DNA of 64,000 nucleotides from Planctomycetota bacterium (GTDB lineage Bacteria; Planctomycetota; Phycisphaerae; Phycisphaerales; Phycisphaeraceae): assembly GCA_038749735.1 (NCBI GenBank), contig JBCDHS010000008.1:5797-69796 (forward strand), in the 5' to 3' direction. The notes below the pieces were generated by a model. That model had not been told where the DNA came from, did not search any database, and worked only from the letters and a program-made list of their open reading frames with translations. Position 1 is the first letter of the stretch, and every line of letters starts with the position of its first letter. Made by a program: the position numbers and the translations under genes. Positions 23,011 through 33,273 of the stretch are shown piece after piece.

Positions 23011-24453
23011 CTATCGGGGCTTGCGGTCCCAGGCCTGAGCGGGGGTCGGGTCGTATCGCGGTGCGGCGTCCTGGTCGGGGAACGACTCGGCGACCGCGGC
23101 GAGGCGCTGCTTTGCTTCGAGCACCTGCGGATCGGTTGAATCGATCAGGTTGCGGGTCTCTGCCGGGTCTTGCTGCAGGTCGTAGAGCCGGGCCGGCTGG
23201 CGATCCACCACCCAGAGTTTGTAGCGGCGGTCACGGATCACCCGGTCGGCGAAGGGCCTGGCGGGTACGACGCGGTTGTCCTGCGTCAGCCGGGCGACCC
23301 CGCCGCCCATCGCCATGATCCATTGCCTGGGACCGCGTTCGGCCTGGCCCACCAAGACGGGGGCGATGGATCGGCCATCCAGCACCAAGCCGTCGGGCAG
23401 GTCGGCCCCGGCCAACTCCGCGAAGGTCGGCAGCACGTCGGTAAAGTCGGTCAGGGTGTCATTAACCCGGCCGACCGGCACCAGCCCCGGCCCCCAAGCA
23501 ATAAACGGGGCGCGGCAACCGTTCTCGGAGATCTTCCCCTTGCCGCCCGTCACCTGCCGCCCGTGCATACGGTTCATCAAGCCGCCAGTGCTGCCGTTGT
23601 CCGTCGTAAAGATCACCAGCGTCTTGCGCCCGCTCTCAAGCGACGCGACGCTATCCAGCAGCCGGCCGACGAGATGGTCGATGTACCGCGTCATGGCCAT
23701 GTGCTTTGCAAGGCGTCCGGTTGCGCCCTGGTCATGAGGCGTGGTGACAAAAGGTGTGTGGGGCAGCGCCATCGGGAAGTAGAGGCAGGCCGGCCGATCA
23801 TCCTCTCGTTGAAGAAACTCAATCAGGAAGTCGGTGTAGACGTCCGGGCCGAAGCGTCCCGGGTAGGTCTTGCTGCCGTCGCGGGTGTGGATATACGGGT
23901 CCCAGTAGCGTTCGGCGCTGGGCGGGTTGCCGGTTTCGTAGCCGGTCCAGACGCACCAGTCGTCGAAGCCGTGCTTATCCAGGACGTTTGGCTGGACACG
24001 GAAATCATTGATCTGCCACTTGCCCGCGATCGCGGTCCGGTACCCCGCTGCGCGGAGCAGTTCGGCGAACGTGGTGTAGTGCCCCGGGTCGAAGTGGCAA
24101 CGCGCCCCCCAGCGCGGGACATCCCAGTGGTTGACCCAGCCGTTGCGGTACGGGTACGTCCCGGTCAGCAGCGCGACCCTTGTCGGCGTGCACTTGGGCA
24201 TCGAGTAGGCATGAGTAAAGCGCATGCCCTCCGCCGCCATGCGGTCAAGGTTGGGCGTCTGGATCCCCTCCGCGCCGTAGCAGCCGATCCACTCCGGGCC
24301 GAGGTCGTCGGCCATGATGAAGATGATGTTGGGTCGGCTCGGTTGACCGGTCGCCACCGAGCAGAAGGCCATCACAATCAGCAAGCTACAGATCGGCCTG
24401 AACAAGTACGCGACGTTCCTGAAATTACCAGACATATCGGATCGACTCAGCAT
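23011..24453 (-). CDS. Sulfatase (formylglycine-dependent, S1)
   Basis: PNIIFIMADDLG, CTPTRVALLTG, GKWQ, FTTDNG and YDLQQDPAE motifs. Confidence 0.92.
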   Translation of the reverse strand: MLSRSDMSGNFRNVAYLFRPICSLLIVMAFCSVATGQPSRPNIIFIMADDLGPEWIGCYGAEGIQTPNLDRMAAEGMRFTHAYSMPKCTPTRVALLTGTYPYRNGWVNHWDVPRWGARCHFDPGHYTTFAELLRAAGYRTAIAGKWQINDFRVQPNVLDKHGFDDWCVWTGYETGNPPSAERYWDPYIHTRDGSKTYPGRFGPDVYTDFLIEFLQREDDRPACLYFPMALPHTPFVTTPHDQGATGRLAKHMAMTRYIDHLVGRLLDSVASLESGRKTLVIFTTDNGSTGGLMNRMHGRQVTGGKGKISENGCRAPFIAWGPGLVPVGRVNDTLTDFTDVLPTFAELAGADLPDGLVLDGRSIAPVLVGQAERGPRQWIMAMGGGVARLTQDNRVVPARPFADRVIRDRRYKLWVVDRQPARLYDLQQDPAETRNLIDSTDPQVLEAKQRLAAVAESFPDQDAAPRYDPTPAQAWDRKPR

Positions 24454-27306: not shown

Positions 27307-28248
27307 ATGACCCGTACCCGCCTCTGGACCACCGCCCTGCTGCTGACCGCCTCGACCGGCCTGTTCACCGGCTGTGTGTCCCAGGAAAGCCAGGACAACC
27401 TCCGCACGATCAACCGCTCGCTCCAGGAGCAGATCATCGACCTGCAGGACCAGATCGAGGGCCTGAAAGTCGCCCTCGCTCAGCGCGATCGTGACCTCGC
27501 CGCGATGCGGGCACGCGAGGCGGCGGGCGAGGATGTCATGAGCGAAAACTCCCGCCTTCGGACACAGGTCGCGACCCTCCAGACCCAGCTCGCGTCGCTG
27601 GAGCAGCAGCTTGCCGAGGCGATCAGCCAGCAGGGCCAGATCACGATCGTTGATGGGCCGCTGCCGCAGGAGCTGCGCGATGCGTTGGGCGACCTCGCGG
27701 CGGCGAACCCCGACCTGATGGTCTTTGATGAGCAGCGGGGCATGATCCGCCTGCGTAGCGACCTGACCTTCTCGCTGGGCTCGGCAACGGTCAACGACAA
27801 CGCCAAGGCCGCCCTGACCCGGCTGGCCGGCGTGCTCAACAGCGCCGATGCCAAGCCGTTCGACATCATGGTCGTCGGCCACACCGACTCGGTACCCGTG
27901 ACCTCGGCGGCGGGTCGGCAGCAACACATCGACAACCGCGGACTCTCCAGCAACCGTGGCGACGCGGTGGCCCGTGTGCTGACGGGTAGCGGGGTGTCCG
28001 CCTCACGGATCATGTCCGGCGGACGCGGCGCGACCCAGCCGATCGCCCAGAACGATGCCCGCCGAGGCAACCAGGCCAACCGCCGGGTGGAGATCTTCAT
28101 CGTCAAGGCCGCTAACCCCGGCGGGGTTGGTCCCGCACCGGCGCCCGAAGGTGATGGCGACGAGACCACCACCGGACGTACCACCGCGCCCCGGCCCGGC
28201 GTGGTCGAAGATCGCCCGGTCGTTGAAGACCCCGGCGCTTTCAAGTAA
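27307..28248 (+). CDS. OmpA/MotB-domain lipoprotein with coiled coil
   Basis: Lipobox LFTGC; long coiled coil; VGHTDS, LSSNRGDAV and NRRVEI motifs; AAGGA SD. Confidence 0.88.
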   Translation: MTRTRLWTTALLLTASTGLFTGCVSQESQDNLRTINRSLQEQIIDLQDQIEGLKVALAQRDRDLAAMRAREAAGEDVMSENSRLRTQVATLQTQLASLEQQLAEAISQQGQITIVDGPLPQELRDALGDLAAANPDLMVFDEQRGMIRLRSDLTFSLGSATVNDNAKAALTRLAGVLNSADAKPFDIMVVGHTDSVPVTSAAGRQQHIDNRGLSSNRGDAVARVLTGSGVSASRIMSGGRGATQPIAQNDARRGNQANRRVEIFIVKAANPGGVGPAPAPEGDGDETTTGRTTAPRPGVVEDRPVVEDPGAFK

Positions 28249-28280
28249 GCCCTCTCGAACATTCTTAACGTCTATGCAAA

Positions 28281-28315
28281 GCGACCCCGCCACCCTGCGG
28301 GGTCGCTCCTTTCTT
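28281..28315 (+). terminator. Intrinsic terminator
   Basis: GCGACCCCGC-cacct-type loop-GCGGGGTCGC (28281-28306) followed by TCCTTTCTT. Confidence 0.7.
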
Positions 28316-28337: not shown

Positions 28338-29597
28338 CTACCAAGACGCGTTGATCTGTTGCTTCAGCTTCGCGACGATGTCGGGGTGCTCTTGAGCCAG
28401 GTCGTTCTGCTCGGCCGGGTCTTCGAGGATGTTGAAGAGCTGCGGCTGCTCGTCGGGCAGGCGGGCGGCATTCGGCTCGATCAGCTTCCAAGGCCCATCG
28501 AGACGCCAGCGGTAAAGCAGGTTGGCCGCGGGGTCAAGGATATCGACGGCATCGTGTGAGTAGACCCCGCCGGTGAAAGACGAGCGGTCCTGAATCTTCA
28601 GCAGGCTGATGCCATCGATGTTGTCCGGGATGTCGATCCCGCAGGCATCAAGTATCGTGGGAAGCAGGTCGATATTCGCGGCGATACCTTCCGCCTCGCC
28701 CGGCTCGACGTGTCCGGGCCATTTGATCATGATCGGCGTACGCAGCCCGCCGTCGTATGGCGACCGCTTGGACCGCGGGGCGTAGCGTTGGCGGTCGGGC
28801 TGATTGATCCAGCCATTGTCACAGATGTAGAGCACGATCGTGTTGTCGGCGACACCCTTTTGCTCCAGCAGGTCCAGCAGCTCACCGCAGGACTCGTCGA
28901 ACCACTCGCACATCGCCCAGTAGCGGGCGATGTGGGGGGAATCGACCCGGGCCTTGTACTTGTCGAACAGCCGTTGCGGCGGCGTGTGCGGGGTGTGGGG
29001 CAGGAACGGGGCGTACCAGATGAAGAAGGGCTTGTCCTCGGCTTTGGCCTGATCGATAAAGCCGGGGATCGGGTCCATGCCCTCGCGGCCGATGACCAGG
29101 CCCTCATCGCCGTGTCGTCCGCCGCGGGCGACGTCACCATGGCTCATGCCGTGGGTAAACCCGCCGTTGGCCCAGTTCCCGTGCCACCACTTGCCGGTCT
29201 GCAACGACAGGTAGCCGTGCTCGCCGAGGATGCGTGGGATCGTCGGGGCCTTGAGCATGAGATCGACATAGACCGCCTGCTGCTCGCGGAGCGGGTTGAT
29301 GAGGTTGCCGGTGACGCCGTTGGTCCGCGGGTACTGGCCGGTGATCATGCTGGCCAGCGACGGACAGCAGAGGCTGGTCGAGACGTAGCCGCGCCGGAAG
29401 ACCAGAGACTCGGAGGCCAGCCGATCGATGCGCGGCGTATCAATCACGGGGTGGCCCATAAACCCGTAGTCGCCGAAGTGCTGGTCGTCGGAGATGATCA
29501 GCAGGACATTGAGCTTGTCGGTGGGCTGGGCCAGGCTGGGATGGGAAATGCCAAAACACAAAATCGCGCAAAGCAGCAGCGGCAGGATATAGCGCAT
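28338..29597 (-). CDS. Sulfatase with a variant signature (CCPSL)
   Basis: NVLLIISDD, LCCPSLASMITG, GKWW, PHTPH and DNG motifs; AGGAGG SD before ATG 29597. Confidence 0.85.
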   Translation of the reverse strand: MRYILPLLLCAILCFGISHPSLAQPTDKLNVLLIISDDQHFGDYGFMGHPVIDTPRIDRLASESLVFRRGYVSTSLCCPSLASMITGQYPRTNGVTGNLINPLREQQAVYVDLMLKAPTIPRILGEHGYLSLQTGKWWHGNWANGGFTHGMSHGDVARGGRHGDEGLVIGREGMDPIPGFIDQAKAEDKPFFIWYAPFLPHTPHTPPQRLFDKYKARVDSPHIARYWAMCEWFDESCGELLDLLEQKGVADNTIVLYICDNGWINQPDRQRYAPRSKRSPYDGGLRTPIMIKWPGHVEPGEAEGIAANIDLLPTILDACGIDIPDNIDGISLLKIQDRSSFTGGVYSHDAVDILDPAANLLYRWRLDGPWKLIEPNAARLPDEQPQLFNILEDPAEQNDLAQEHPDIVAKLKQQINASW

Positions 29598-29668
29598 CGG
29601 TAAGCCTCCTAGAGAGATACGGTGCATTTAGCCATGTCTTCAGGATAGACGGTGTTGGAGCGGTCGTA

Positions 29669-30487
29669 TTAAAAGTGGCTCGGCAGGTTGGCCGCCGCCT
29701 TACGGATATCGCCGATCCGGTCGTCCCCCGCCTCGCGCTCGATCACCAAGTCGCCCTCGAACCCAGCACCGCTAAGCAGGCCGAAGAACGCGGGCCAGTC
29801 GACCGCCCCCTCGCCGCCGGCCATCTCCGTGCCCCACACGCCGGGCTCGGGCTGGGGCGTCGCGTCCTTGAGGTGGACCTGCCTGACGTGGGGCAGCAGC
29901 TTATCCAGCGATTCGATCGGGTCTCCCATGCCGTAGAGCAGCATGTTGGCCGGGTCGAAATTAACCCCGACGCTTTCACGCTCGACGTGATCTAGGAAGG
30001 CATTGAGCGAGTCGGCGGTCTCCTGGCCGGTCTCCAGCAGCAGATCGGCCCGGGCGGCATCCCAGAGCACGTCGGCAAAGGTGCCCAAACGCTCGACCAT
30101 CTTCCCCTCGGCCTCCGGGTCGATAAAGCCGACGTGGAAGGTGACCTGCTCGAGCTCCATGTCCCCGGCGATCTCGCAGCACTTGCGGAAGTTGGCGAGG
30201 TTGGCCTCCCAGGTCGCGTCGGGCAGCAGCCCGCCGGTCTGCTTGATCGTCTGGGGCGTGGTGTAGTCCTCGCCCAGCGGGGTGAACATACCCGAGACGA
30301 TCTCGATGCCCTCGTCGGCGAGCAACTGCTTCGTGCCGCCCCACCTCTCAGGATCAAGGTGGATCGGGTCTAGGTGAAGCTGCAGGCGCTTGAGCCCGAT
30401 CTCGTGACAAGCATTGATCAGGCACTTGGGGCAGTTGGGCTGCACCGACCAGGAGCAGAAAGCGAGTTGGTCTTTGGACAGGGGCAT
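29669..30487 (-). CDS. Sugar phosphate isomerase/epimerase (xylose-isomerase-like TIM barrel)
   Basis: LLETGQE, NFDPAN, VHLKDA and VIERE metal-binding pattern. Confidence 0.85.
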   Translation of the reverse strand: MPLSKDQLAFCSWSVQPNCPKCLINACHEIGLKRLQLHLDPIHLDPERWGGTKQLLADEGIEIVSGMFTPLGEDYTTPQTIKQTGGLLPDATWEANLANFRKCCEIAGDMELEQVTFHVGFIDPEAEGKMVERLGTFADVLWDAARADLLLETGQETADSLNAFLDHVERESVGVNFDPANMLLYGMGDPIESLDKLLPHVRQVHLKDATPQPEPGVWGTEMAGGEGAVDWPAFFGLLSGAGFEGDLVIEREAGDDRIGDIRKAAANLPSHF

Positions 30488-30526
30488 GGATCTCTTCTTT
30501 GGGTTAAAGAAACAGGACGGCATACA

Positions 30527-31534
30527 TCAGAGCGAGACCGGCCGGCCGGTGTTCACACTTTCGACCTCGGCCTCGACGATACGTACCGCGTTGGCGGCGT
30601 CCAGCATCGTCACCGTTTCCGGCTGGCGCCCGGACTTGACGCACTCAATGAAGTAGCCGATCTCATAGTCGTACCCCATGCCCGGCTCGATCTCAACCGG
30701 CTCGGCTTTGCCGTCGCGATACAGCGTCAAAGGCTTCTCGCCGGCGCCGAACTCAGCGGTCGCGTGCTCGAAATTGACCGTGAACGCCATGCTGAACGAA
30801 AACCCGTCCGCCATGGCCCAGGACCCCTCGGCCACCACCAGGGGGATGTCGTCGTACTCATAGCGCGTCACGATATGGTCCACCGCATCCGTTGGCCGGG
30901 AATACCCGACACTCTGCACACCCTTGGGCTGGCCGAAGAGGAACTGGATGAAGTCGGTGTCGTGGATATGCAGGTCCAACGCCGCCCCGCCGCTGGCTTG
31001 CCCGCTGGCATAAAAAGCAGCTTTGGGGTGCGAGGCGACACGACGGAAGGTGGCTCCGAGCACCTTGCCGTAGGTTTGCTGGTCACAGGCTTTCTTCAGC
31101 CAGGTCCAACCGGGCCAGAACCGCATACACATCGCGGGCATGACGATCTTGCCGCTGGCCGTGGCCGCCTGGACCAGCTTCATCGCGTCGGACGAGGTCC
31201 GGGCGATCGGTTTCTCGAGCAGCAGGTGCTTGCCCGCCTCGAGGGCCATCATCCCAAACGGCAGGTGCGCGGGCGTGGGCAAGCAGATATCGACCGCCTC
31301 CACGTCTGGGTCCTGGATCAACTCCGCCGCGTCGGTGTACCGCTTTGCGGACGGCAGGTCGAGCCCGCCGCGTGCCTGGCCCTCGATATTCCCCTTGGCT
31401 TTTTCCTTGCCGGCCAAACGGCTCGGGTCGCGGTCGGCCAAGGCCACCACCTCGACATCGCCCCGCTGGGCATATGCATCCAGGTGGGTGATCCCCATCA
31501 TCCCCAGGCCCACAACACCAACTTTCACCGCCAT
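30527..31534 (-). CDS. Gfo/Idh/MocA-family oxidoreductase
   Basis: VGVVGLGMMG, LPTPAH, LLEKP, MRFWP and LDLHIHD motifs; GAAAGGA SD. Confidence 0.92.
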   Translation of the reverse strand: MAVKVGVVGLGMMGITHLDAYAQRGDVEVVALADRDPSRLAGKEKAKGNIEGQARGGLDLPSAKRYTDAAELIQDPDVEAVDICLPTPAHLPFGMMALEAGKHLLLEKPIARTSSDAMKLVQAATASGKIVMPAMCMRFWPGWTWLKKACDQQTYGKVLGATFRRVASHPKAAFYASGQASGGAALDLHIHDTDFIQFLFGQPKGVQSVGYSRPTDAVDHIVTRYEYDDIPLVVAEGSWAMADGFSFSMAFTVNFEHATAEFGAGEKPLTLYRDGKAEPVEIEPGMGYDYEIGYFIECVKSGRQPETVTMLDAANAVRIVEAEVESVNTGRPVSL

Positions 31535-31935
31535 GCCGGATCATCCTTTCACGGTCTTTGGTGACGTGACGCGTGCCACGCCCTCTCGGGGTCAAAGAGT
31601 CTAACCCAATGACGGGCGGGGTGATGATGCGGGTTGGTATGGCTCGGCGGATCTCGCCGCCAAGGCTGCCTGTAGCACGGTCTCACAGACTCCCGCCATT
31701 GGTCCAGTAAAATCTCGGCCGCTGGGGCGTCATGCTCTGCAACGAAAAGTCACTGAAAGGATAAGTCGATGCATCTACCCCCGCTTGCCCGCAACACCCC
31801 CCTTCTTTTCTTCGCCACCGCCATGATCCCAGGAGAATACGCCCCGCGACGACGCCCGCTGATCGGCCTCCAGAACCAAAGCGAATCATAAAGATTAGGC
31901 ATCCGAAACACTAACCTCCAGTTTGCGAGCCACGC

Positions 31936-33273
31936 ATGAAACGCTCTTTTCCCCGACCCATCCCCGGCATGGCTGCGCTGTTCGCAGTCGTCTTGATGAC
32001 CACGGCAACTGCCCAGGAAAACAACCAGCCACCCGAGGGGTTTGCCTCACTGTTTAACGGCGAGAACCTCGATGGCTGGACCGGCGGGACCACGCGGGAC
32101 CCCCGGCAGATCGCGGCCATGCCCGCGGATGAGCGTGAGGCCCACGGGGCGAAACTACAGGAAGCCATTGGGGAACACTGGCGTGTGGAGGGCGGCGCAT
32201 TGATCAGCGACGGACAAGGGCCGCACCTGGTGACGACACGCGGCTACGGCAACTTCGAGCTTTGGGTTGATTATATGCTCAAAGCCAATGGCGACAGCGG
32301 GGTCTACCTCCGCGATACGCCTCAGGTTCAGATCTGGGACCCATCCAATGTCCAAGCCCACCGACACGGCTCGGACAAAGGCTCAGGCGGTCTTTGGAAC
32401 AATAAAACCCACGCCCGGTTCCCAACTGAAGTTGCGGACAGACCCATCGGCGAGTGGAACCGGATGTACATCCAAATGGTCGGCCAGTACGTCACGGTCA
32501 AGCTTAACGGCATGACCGTCGTGGAAAACGTCGTTATGGAGAACTTCTTCGAACGCAGCCTACCTGTTTTCAAGGCCGGGACCATCCACCTCCAAACCCA
32601 CGGCAGCGAGACCCGCTTCCGCAACGTGTTTATTCGTGAGATCCCGGACCCAGAGGCGGACCAACTCCTTGCCGATGCCCGCGGCGGCGAGGACGGCTTT
32701 GAATCGCTTTTCAACGGCGAAGACCTGACCGGCTGGATCGGGGCGACCGAGAACTACGAGGTCGTCAACGGAGCCGTTCGCTGCAAGGCCGGCCACGGCG
32801 GGAATCTTCTGACCAAAGACATGTACGGGGATTTCATAGTCCGCCTTGAGTTTAAGCTCCCGCCCGGGGGCAACAACGGGTTAGCCATTCGAACACCAGG
32901 CCCAGATGTTGATGCGGCCTACGCGGGGATCGAATTGCAGGTCCTTGACGATACCGCGGAAAAATTCGCCGAACTTGCCGAGTACCAGTACCACGGCAGC
33001 GCCTACGGCCTTGCCCCCGCCGCGCGCGGCTACCTCCGCCCCGTTGGGCAGTGGAACTTTCAAGAAGTACGCGTGCAGGGCGATCAGGTCCAGGTCGTCC
33101 TCAACGGCTTTACCATCCTCGACACCAACCTGACCGAGGCCTTGAACAAGCGGATTGACGGCAGAGACCACCCCGGCGCCTCGCGCACCGAGGGCCACTT
33201 CGGGTTCTGCGGCCACAACGACCCGGTCGAGTTCCGCACTATCCGGATCAAGTCACTGGGCCCGGGCGAATAA
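31936..33273 (+). CDS. Secreted tandem DUF1080 (3-keto-disaccharide hydrolase) protein
   Basis: Two repeats: LFNGENLDGW...DSGVYLR...GEWNR...QTHGSETRFRN and LFNGEDLTGW...NNGLAIR...GQWN...GHNDPVEFR. Confidence 0.9.
   Translation: MKRSFPRPIPGMAALFAVVLMTTATAQENNQPPEGFASLFNGENLDGWTGGTTRDPRQIAAMPADEREAHGAKLQEAIGEHWRVEGGALISDGQGPHLVTTRGYGNFELWVDYMLKANGDSGVYLRDTPQVQIWDPSNVQAHRHGSDKGSGGLWNNKTHARFPTEVADRPIGEWNRMYIQMVGQYVTVKLNGMTVVENVVMENFFERSLPVFKAGTIHLQTHGSETRFRNVFIREIPDPEADQLLADARGGEDGFESLFNGEDLTGWIGATENYEVVNGAVRCKAGHGGNLLTKDMYGDFIVRLEFKLPPGGNNGLAIRTPGPDVDAAYAGIELQVLDDTAEKFAELAEYQYHGSAYGLAPAARGYLRPVGQWNFQEVRVQGDQVQVVLNGFTILDTNLTEALNKRIDGRDHPGASRTEGHFGFCGHNDPVEFRTIRIKSLGPGE

Follow-up and report, generated by a model that had tools for sequence, protein, structure and literature searches.

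The closest described systems to the locus reported here are the gene clusters BT2156-BT2160 of Bacteroides thetaiotaomicron and AL1-AL5 of Alistipes, in which glycosides are cleaved by oxidation, elimination and hydration; the chemistry of BT2156-BT2159 and AL1-AL4 has been established in vitro (10.1101/2024.03.25.586180). AL3/BT2158 is a twin-arginine translocation (Tat)-type oxidoreductase of the Gfo/Idh/MocA family that oxidises C3 (10.1101/2024.03.25.586180, Nasseri et al.; Liu et al. 2021, PMC8121099). AL1/BT2156 is an exported TIM barrel and a 3-keto-beta-glucoside 1,2-lyase, AL2/BT2157 is a DUF1080 lipoprotein with 3-keto-alpha-glucoside lyase and glycal hydratase activities, and AL4/BT2159 is a cytosolic member of the Gfo/Idh/MocA family (10.1101/2024.03.25.586180; PMC8121099). 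The same families meet in a 64,000-nt stretch of DNA, referred to below as the window, from the planctomycete assembly GCA_038749735.1 (contig JBCDHS010000008.1, positions 5,797 to 69,796), where genes for a Gfo/Idh/MocA oxidoreductase, a TIM barrel, a tandem DUF1080 protein and a sulfatase-family protein lie side by side between positions 28338 and 33273. On balance, this locus appears to be a remodelled and partly eroded copy of an oxidative (3-keto) glycoside cleavage gene set that occurs throughout the Planctomycetota-Verrucomicrobiota-Chlamydiota (PVC) bacteria, with an unrelated sulfatase gene inserted into it.

An initial annotation, made from the sequence of the window alone, had proposed a planctomycete version of the oxidation, elimination and hydration route that may act on sulfated glycans. 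The organism is indeed a planctomycete, of the class Phycisphaerae, and the three families invoked do match the three steps of the characterised route (10.1101/2024.03.25.586180). A literature search for a described planctomycete version returned only a 2017 proposal, from Thermogutta, of DUF1080 proteins as xanthan glycosidases. In the following, GFO denotes the signal-less Gfo/Idh/MocA protein, TIM the PF01261 barrel, TIM2 a second TIM barrel and Tat-GFO a Tat-exported, BT2158-like dehydrogenase.

Organization of the locus

As first annotated, the oxidoreductase, TIM-barrel and sulfatase genes form a single minus-strand run that diverges from a secreted protein with two DUF1080 domains; the open reading frames (ORFs), family assignments and coordinates were all confirmed. 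GFO, a predicted NAD(P)-dependent oxidoreductase of 335 aa, is encoded at 30527-31534 (PF01408, 79 bits; PF22725, 45 bits), TIM, a xylose-isomerase-like barrel of 284 aa as an ORF, at 29669-30523 (PF01261, 95.2 bits) and the 429-aa sulfatase-family protein at 28338-29627 (PF00884, 166.7 bits), all on the minus strand. The tandem DUF1080 protein (DUF1080x2; 445 aa) is encoded on the plus strand at 31936-33273 and contains two PF06439 stretches (270.6 bits). Alignment with orthologues indicates that TIM probably starts at M13 (position 30487), which gives a protein of 272 aa. The GFO and TIM genes are 3 nt apart, or 39 nt with the start at M13, and 41 nt separate TIM from the sulfatase gene. A scan for terminator-like sites, a pattern match only, found none between the GFO, TIM and sulfatase genes; it picked out a G+C-rich hairpin with an 11-bp stem at 28280-28307, where the sulfatase and OmpA-family genes converge, which is likely to be a bidirectional terminator ending a GFO-TIM-sulfatase transcription unit. 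The divergent intergenic region between GFO and DUF1080x2 (31535-31935, 401 nt) gave no match in a sigma-70-like promoter scan. In synteny maps this is the position at which most congeners carry a Tat-GFO gene, and some also TIM2.

Signal peptides, judged by eye from the translations, are present on the sulfatase and DUF1080x2 only. GFO and TIM are thus predicted to be cytoplasmic, and DUF1080x2 and the sulfatase to be exported.

Comparison with congeners

TIM has a single-copy orthologue in 33 of the 41 relatives screened, and the region within 8 kb on either side of TIM was mapped in 20 relatives with window and congener proteins. All 11 congeners examined share a core of GFO, ROK kinase and TIM. 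In seven of them a Tat-GFO gene encoding 446-458 aa lies divergently upstream, and in most of those the DUF1080x2 orthologue is next, so that the congener arrangement consists of DUF1080x2 and Tat-GFO divergent from (TIM2-)GFO-ROK-TIM. TIM2 precedes GFO in 4 of the 11 congeners, and a MalK-like ATPase gene follows TIM in 4 of the 11. The Tat-GFO of the relatives (P0005) has the Tat signal SRRQILK and matches the glycoside 3-dehydrogenase model BT_2158_fam over its full length at 287.7 bits, below the equivalog cut-off of 750 bits. The ROK kinase of the congeners scores 240.5 bits on the ROK glucokinase model; a kinase within the operon is a difference from the Bacteroidota clusters.

Much of this set is gone from the genome studied here, which in this respect is unlike every one of the congeners examined. 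No Tat-GFO gene is present between 27 and 35.5 kb of the window, a difference from BT2156-BT2160 and AL1-AL5 as well, and the closest counterpart that the genome has to the Tat-GFO of the relatives is 34% identical and lies on another contig. A TIM2 orthologue was not found in the genome (best match 32%), and MalK has been relocated to another contig. No pseudogene remnants of Tat-GFO, TIM2, ROK or MalK were detected by tblastn in the 27-35.5 kb region. Additionally, neither a ROK-family (PF00480) nor a Glk-family (PF02685) glucokinase was found in the whole assembly (3.75 Mb, 97.5% complete, from a Phycisphaeraceae-type planctomycete), and the lineage may lack the usual phosphorylation of free glucose. 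The module copy in this genome is remodelled and eroded: the exported dehydrogenase, TIM2 and the ROK kinase have been lost. These absences, together with the split between cytoplasmic GFO and TIM and exported DUF1080x2, go beyond what had been noted from the window itself.

Conservation and gene fusions beyond the genus

A wider scan for TIM, reduced to one genome per species, yielded 80 loci, distributed over Planctomycetota, Verrucomicrobiota, Acidobacteriota, Hydrogenedentota and other phyla; in 47 of these the next gene after TIM encodes a GFO orthologue (36-54% identical). The pairing is also over-represented within the genome itself, which has 16 GFO, 15 TIM, approximately 13 DUF1080 and approximately 50 sulfatase genes: with a gene total estimated here at about 3,300, random placement would give around 0.15 GFO-TIM adjacencies, and several are observed. 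The pairing is therefore not due to chance.

Full sets of four genes occur in other lineages. Two genomes of another planctomycete family (loci L172 and L173) have a co-directional operon of TIM, GFO, Tat-GFO and DUF1080x2. A verrucomicrobial locus (L063) is likewise co-directional, in the order DUF1080x2, Tat-GFO, TIM and GFO, and a Luteolibacter locus (Verrucomicrobiota; L081) carries all four genes in a co-directional operon. In a sample of 150 genomes of the phylum, TIM and DUF1080x2 were both found in 6, and in 3 of these 6 they lie no more than approximately 4 kb apart. Overall, at least four separate lineages show linkage of DUF1080x2 to TIM-GFO, and gene fusions show it as well.

The fusions were recovered by searching for longer TIM homologues. 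Approximately 33 protein clusters join TIM and GFO in one polypeptide of 570-730 aa, mostly of about 630 aa; one of these, P0012, lacks a signal peptide, and the window GFO aligns over its full length, at 45% identity, with the C-terminal half of this fusion. Three further clusters, one with 144 member sequences, combine a lipoprotein signal, two DUF1080 domains and TIM. In these fusions, P0042 among them, the identities to the window proteins are 45% for DUF1080 domain 2, 39% for domain 1 and 39% for TIM. A single exported fusion of a signal, a PIG-L domain and TIM was also found (P0037). By an independent route, a structural search of the ESM Atlas, a cluster of 758-aa Kiritimatiellota TIM/DUF1080 fusions was returned as a structural neighbour with a template modelling (TM) score of 0.92. 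Unlike the window TIM, which has no export signal, the TIM domain is exported in fusions of this Kiritimatiellota type. The operons and the Rosetta-stone fusions together tie TIM, GFO and DUF1080x2 functionally to one another.

The operons of the PVC relatives bring together the same four families as the Bacteroidota clusters, namely PF01261, PF06439, a Tat-GFO and a signal-less GFO, and their two GFO-type proteins are likewise split between periplasm and cytoplasm. Because the four families are the same, the proposal that they constitute a PVC variant of the oxidise-eliminate-hydrate pathway of BT2156-BT2159 and AL1-AL4 is well supported. In a further difference from the Bacteroidota clusters, TIM and GFO occur much more widely as a pair on their own, or fused into one polypeptide, than as part of the full set.

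De novo clustering of neighbouring genes revealed two other recurrent partners. A fusion of a NagB-like domain (PF01182) and a PIG-L deacetylase domain (PF02585) is encoded directly upstream of TIM in 11 of the 80 loci, for example the 650-aa protein at L057:5762-7714, and a nucleoside-H+-symporter-type permease of the major facilitator superfamily (MFS) is encoded downstream of TIM in 8 of the 80. No other inositol-pathway family was found among the recurrent neighbours.

The oxidoreductase, the TIM barrel and the tandem DUF1080 protein

GFO has its GxGxxG Rossmann motif at residues 6-11, right at the N-terminus, and no signal peptide. Its EKP and D-L-H-x-H-D motifs are invariant across orthologues and fusions, and both cofactor and catalytic motifs are intact. 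All NCBIfam scores fall below the respective cut-offs: 118 bits against 450 for UDP-GlcNAc (UDP-N-acetylglucosamine) 3-dehydrogenase, 109 against 355 for IolG (TIGR04380), 70.2 against 650 for levoglucosan dehydrogenase (NF052479) and 30.2 against 650 for BT_2159_fam. GFO is accordingly not a BT2159 orthologue, given the last of these scores, and it also differs from LgdA in failing the levoglucosan dehydrogenase level. The match to DgpA (E 3e-16) covers the Rossmann half only.

The N-terminus of TIM lacks a hydrophobic stretch and a signal peptide. The candidate metal-binding and catalytic residues H118, E152, D178, H205 and E250 are invariant. The sole NCBIfam match is to IolE (TIGR04379), at 29.5 bits against a cut-off of 290, so that both the IolG and the IolE equivalog levels of myo-inositol catabolism are missed by GFO and TIM. 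In NCBIfam and PDB sequence searches none of TIM, GFO and DUF1080x2 obtained an equivalog-level assignment, and among PDB sequences TIM had no significant match to chains named LgdB or DgpB/C. The predicted TIM model (mean predicted local distance difference test score, pLDDT, of 92.8) is closest to 3tva, a xylose-isomerase-domain protein of Planctomyces limnophilus from structural genomics (TM 0.83; 180 bits with the profile; 27-30% identity). Among solved structures, 3tva is the one clear relative of TIM by sequence, and it is similar in fold as well; having no assigned function, it is of no help in assigning TIM. The next structural neighbours are 2zds and then AtHYD, the 2-hydroxy-3-keto-glucal hydratase of Agrobacterium tumefaciens (8ro4; TM ~0.75), for which a weak profile match was also obtained (28.8 bits, E 7e-6). 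However, TIM is only ~19% identical to AtHYD, whose chain is ~65 residues longer, and the likeness is at the superfamily level, common to epimerases and isomerases. Other structural neighbours are UlaE, ketose 3-epimerases, IolI and AsbF. These model-based neighbours are compatible with the proposed function, not diagnostic of it.

DUF1080x2 has a Sec signal (N-terminal ...TATA/QE), a first domain at approximately residues 30-237 and a second at approximately residues 254-441. Its similarity to the BT2157 chains (8tda, 3osd and 8rr2) is distant: the complete protein gives E ~1e-8, with the best match over domain 2, and domain 1 as a separate query gives E ~5e-4. Unlike AL2/BT2157, the protein is a tandem of two diverged DUF1080 types, neither of which has all of the family-conserved positions: relative to positions defined from the 14 DUF1080 domains of this genome, whose correspondence to BT2157 residue numbers is presumptive, domain 1 departs by N->D, E->Q and Y->W, and domain 2 by Q->C. 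P0042, a distant fusion, shows the same deviations, except that Tyr is retained in its domain-1-like domain. The two domains represent distinct conserved subtypes. Their order is swapped, with the domain-2-like subtype first, in the Kiritimatiellota-type fusion P0042 and in the verrucomicrobial orthologue L063:97-1338.

The sulfatase-family gene

The sulfatase-family protein resembles S1 sulfatases such as the exo-4S-kappa-carrageenan sulfatase 6prm in several respects. It carries a signal peptide (...SLA/QP), its PF00884 match spans profile positions 2-301 of 301, and its architecture is a full-length PF00884 domain followed by SGSH_C. The metal-binding Asp-Asp pair is kept, as 'ISDDQ' aligns with 'FADDA' of 6prm, and a Cys occupies the formylglycine position. 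Unlike S1 sulfatases, however, it has C-x-P-x-L and not C-x-P-x-R: the formylglycine motif C/S-x-P/A-x-R is replaced by C-C-P-S-L (residues 86-90), compared with C-G-P-S-R in 6prm, an Arg to Leu change. The Arg of C-x-P-x-R is both a recognition determinant for the formylglycine-generating enzyme (FGE) and an active-site residue. The Leu is kept in all 11 homologues from congeners, within a clade of at least 12 homologues. Among 42 aligned sulfatases of the genome itself, 39 have the Arg, two have C-x-P-x-L and one has C-x-A-x-K; a further C-x-P-x-L protein of this genome is encoded at G000:C20:49956-51236. By its motif the protein is placed in a maintained, atypical C-x-P-x-L clade, and sulfatase activity is therefore not to be assumed. 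The clade may represent a functionally distinct S1 subgroup.

The sulfatase gene is co-oriented, and probably co-transcribed, with GFO and TIM. None of the 20 mapped relatives has this gene at the locus, and its closest homologue in the complete genome of one congener (G002), 66% identical, is located 1.12 Mb from the TIM locus. In the wider set, just 5 of the 80 TIM loci have any sulfatase gene no more than 8 kb away, a frequency that does not exceed background (~20% for such genomes, a rough estimate). A sulfatase neighbour is expected by chance at approximately 3% per flank in the present genome and is unremarkable alone. Neighbourhood conservation, which the initial annotation had named as a check, therefore holds for GFO, TIM and DUF1080x2, by adjacency, four-gene operons and fusions, and fails for the sulfatase (0 of 20 relatives). 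The sulfatase is a recent lineage-specific insertion and no member of a conserved module. Another sulfatase gene of the window, at 23011-24453 on the minus strand (PF00884, 155.8 bits), is inserted between a DUF5658 gene and a sulfite/nitrite-reductase-like gene, a site at which the congeners have no gene. In this genome, sulfatase genes seem to have been dispersed into conserved blocks.

Flanking genes and related loci

To the left, a coiled-coil and OmpA-domain protein is encoded at 27307-28248 on the plus strand, and its gene is kept in all congeners. An ORF on the opposite strand (27480-28262) was rejected as a gene, being an antisense shadow of the OmpA-family ORF. Further along, both in the congeners and in the window, the OmpA-family gene is followed by an amidohydrolase / beta-hydroxyacid dehydrogenase / DUF5658 block. 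Despite its synteny within the genus, this block was rejected as a part of the module because the OmpA-family gene intervenes on the opposite strand and because TIM loci beyond the genus do not have the block. On the right, the flanking genes (IspG, PMI-like, Lpd-like, AraC and NmrA) are unrelated to the module.

Two other contigs of the genome carry related gene combinations. On contig C6 (G000:C6:51794-56889; locus L131:2794-7889) there is a second and more complete keto-sugar-type cluster. It comprises two TIM-barrel genes, of which one is psicose-epimerase-like, two DUF1080 genes with a single domain each, and the gene of a GFO resembling levoglucosan dehydrogenase, which scores 331.6 bits on NF052479 over its full length. 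On contig C61 (G000:C61:9260-15315; locus L132:2260-8648) a BT2158-like Tat-type GFO gene (198.6 bits on BT_2158_fam) is located directly upstream of three sulfatase genes; oxidative chemistry coupled to desulfation is better sought there than in the window.

Proposed pathway and alternatives

The gene families, localisation signals, synteny, fusions and losses described above were observed, and all of the chemistry and the substrate are proposed. GFO with bound NAD(P)+ would oxidise a sugar hydroxyl, probably the C3-OH, of an imported glycoside; a metal-dependent TIM would abstract the acidified H-2, eliminate the C1 substituent and hydrate the ensuing 2-hydroxy-3-keto-glycal; and GFO-NAD(P)H would reduce the 3-keto sugar back to the normal sugar. 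The cytoplasmic pair would thereby resemble the levoglucosan (LgdA/B) and DgpA/BC systems in its action. In congeners, the ROK kinase would phosphorylate the product, which is probably a hexose because the glucokinase-like ROK gene lies between GFO and TIM. In several lineages, Tat-GFO would make 3-keto-glycosides outside the cytoplasm, and the exported DUF1080x2 would eliminate and hydrate these in the manner of BT2157/AL2. In the genome studied here, DUF1080x2 would depend for keto-glycosides on paralogous Tat-GFOs encoded elsewhere, such as that on C61.

Several observations weigh against an oxidative cleavage module at this locus. TIM is signal-less and cytoplasmic in Phycisphaerae, unlike the exported AL1/BT2156, and neither TIM nor the cytoplasmic GFO is an orthologue of BT2156 or BT2159. 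The TIM profile, run against PDB, found no chain identifiable as AL1/BT1 at E <= 0.1, GFO is also similar to inositol and UDP-GlcNAc dehydrogenases, and the TIM and GFO subfamilies are without any assayed enzyme. A DUF1080 gene of any kind lies no more than 8 kb from TIM in just 6 of the 80 loci, approximately the background rate, and most DUF1080x2 orthologues stand alone. The PIG-L / NagB-like and MFS partners imply that the substrate may be an amino-sugar glycoside and not a glucoside. Lastly, the exported oxidase is missing in this genome, as is any ROK or Glk glucokinase, so that what remains may function in another way or have no function.

A further proposal is tentative. The TIM-GFO pair, and its fusions of ~630 aa, could be a self-sufficient cytoplasmic non-Koshland glycosidase, possibly for glycosides of the GlcNAc (N-acetylglucosamine) or GlcN (glucosamine) type in view of the PIG-L and NagB-like partners, widespread across Planctomycetota, Verrucomicrobiota, Acidobacteriota and others. 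It would be coupled in some PVC lineages to a periplasmic Tat-GFO and DUF1080x2, in a two-compartment pathway, and rewired here to a C-x-P-x-L sulfatase clade with non-canonical chemistry. The neighbouring genes hint that the TIM-GFO unit may act on N-acetyl-hexosamine glycosides. The best mechanistic analogy for such a pair is offered by the levoglucosan pathway (LgdA / LgdB1 / LgdB2 / LgdC; Kuritani et al. 2020, PMC7676230; Kaur et al. 2023, PMC10066097). The analogy extends to the C-glycoside DgpA/DgpBC systems. Both kinds of system combine a GFO and a TIM barrel wholly in the cytoplasm, where they oxidise C3, eliminate, hydrate and reduce.

A different and rather unlikely explanation is that the TIM-GFO unit pairs a cytoplasmic dehydrogenase for sugars or cyclitols with an isomerase or dehydratase, in a conversion of the inositol, rare-sugar or amino-sugar type that cleaves no glycosidic bond, and that the proximity of DUF1080 and Tat-GFO genes reflects a general clustering of sugar genes. 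It would fit the best curated matches of GFO (UDP-GlcNAc 3-dehydrogenase and IolG) and the single 29.5-bit IolE match of TIM, yet all of these lie far under their cut-offs. The structural neighbours of TIM (UlaE, ketose 3-epimerases, IolI and AsbF), the absence of DUF1080 from the surroundings of most TIM-GFO loci and the NagB-like/PIG-L and MFS permease neighbours in other lineages are in keeping with it too. However, TIM is tied to glycoside-acting enzymes both by the exported TIM::DUF1080x2 and PIG-L::TIM fusions and by the compact four-gene operons, which contain a BT2158-like glycoside 3-dehydrogenase, and the recurrent neighbours comprise no other inositol-pathway family.

The initial suggestion of action on sulfated glycans would make GFO, TIM and the sulfatase a working operon that, with DUF1080x2, cleaves sulfated glycans after the exported sulfatase has removed the sulfate. 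This is unlikely and is not supported. In its favour, the three genes are co-oriented with gaps of 3-41 nt, with no terminator-like site inside the run but a hairpin beyond the sulfatase gene, the genome is rich in sulfatases and has FGE genes, the C61 locus places a BT2158-like Tat-GFO directly upstream of three sulfatases, and sulfatase genes adjoin a few DUF1080x2 orthologues (L033, L036, L037 and L152). However, the sulfatase is unlinked in the 20 relatives, where none lies beside TIM or GFO, its frequency near TIM is below the rough background, and the 66% identical homologue of G002 lies far from the TIM locus. In addition, the loss of the Arg means that ordinary sulfatase activity is not assured, and GFO and TIM are predicted to be cytoplasmic and the sulfatase exported, with the exported oxidase missing.

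Chance juxtaposition of four families expanded in the genome, with no functional relation, is very improbable: the family sizes, the evident rearrangement of the locus and the unrelated housekeeping genes on its right flank are consistent with it, but it accounts for the sulfatase only, not for a GFO-TIM linkage and fusions kept across phyla or for the recurrent linkage and fusions of DUF1080x2.

Implications

A remodelled copy of a PVC-wide gene set, trimmed at this locus and with a sulfatase inserted, is thus the favoured interpretation. The link to the sulfatase is best treated as a local accident, and the copy in the window, as a trimmed remnant, is a poor test case compared with the congeners or the four-gene operons. 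Cleavage of glycosides by oxidation, elimination and hydration was established only recently, and for gut Bacteroidota only. PVC bacteria are major degraders of polysaccharides in the sea and in soil, and the strong expansion of their GFO, TIM-barrel and DUF1080 families is unexplained. The conserved and often fused TIM-GFO unit, together with BT2158-like and tandem DUF1080 proteins, provides concrete candidates for such a pathway outside the gut, including a version in a single polypeptide.

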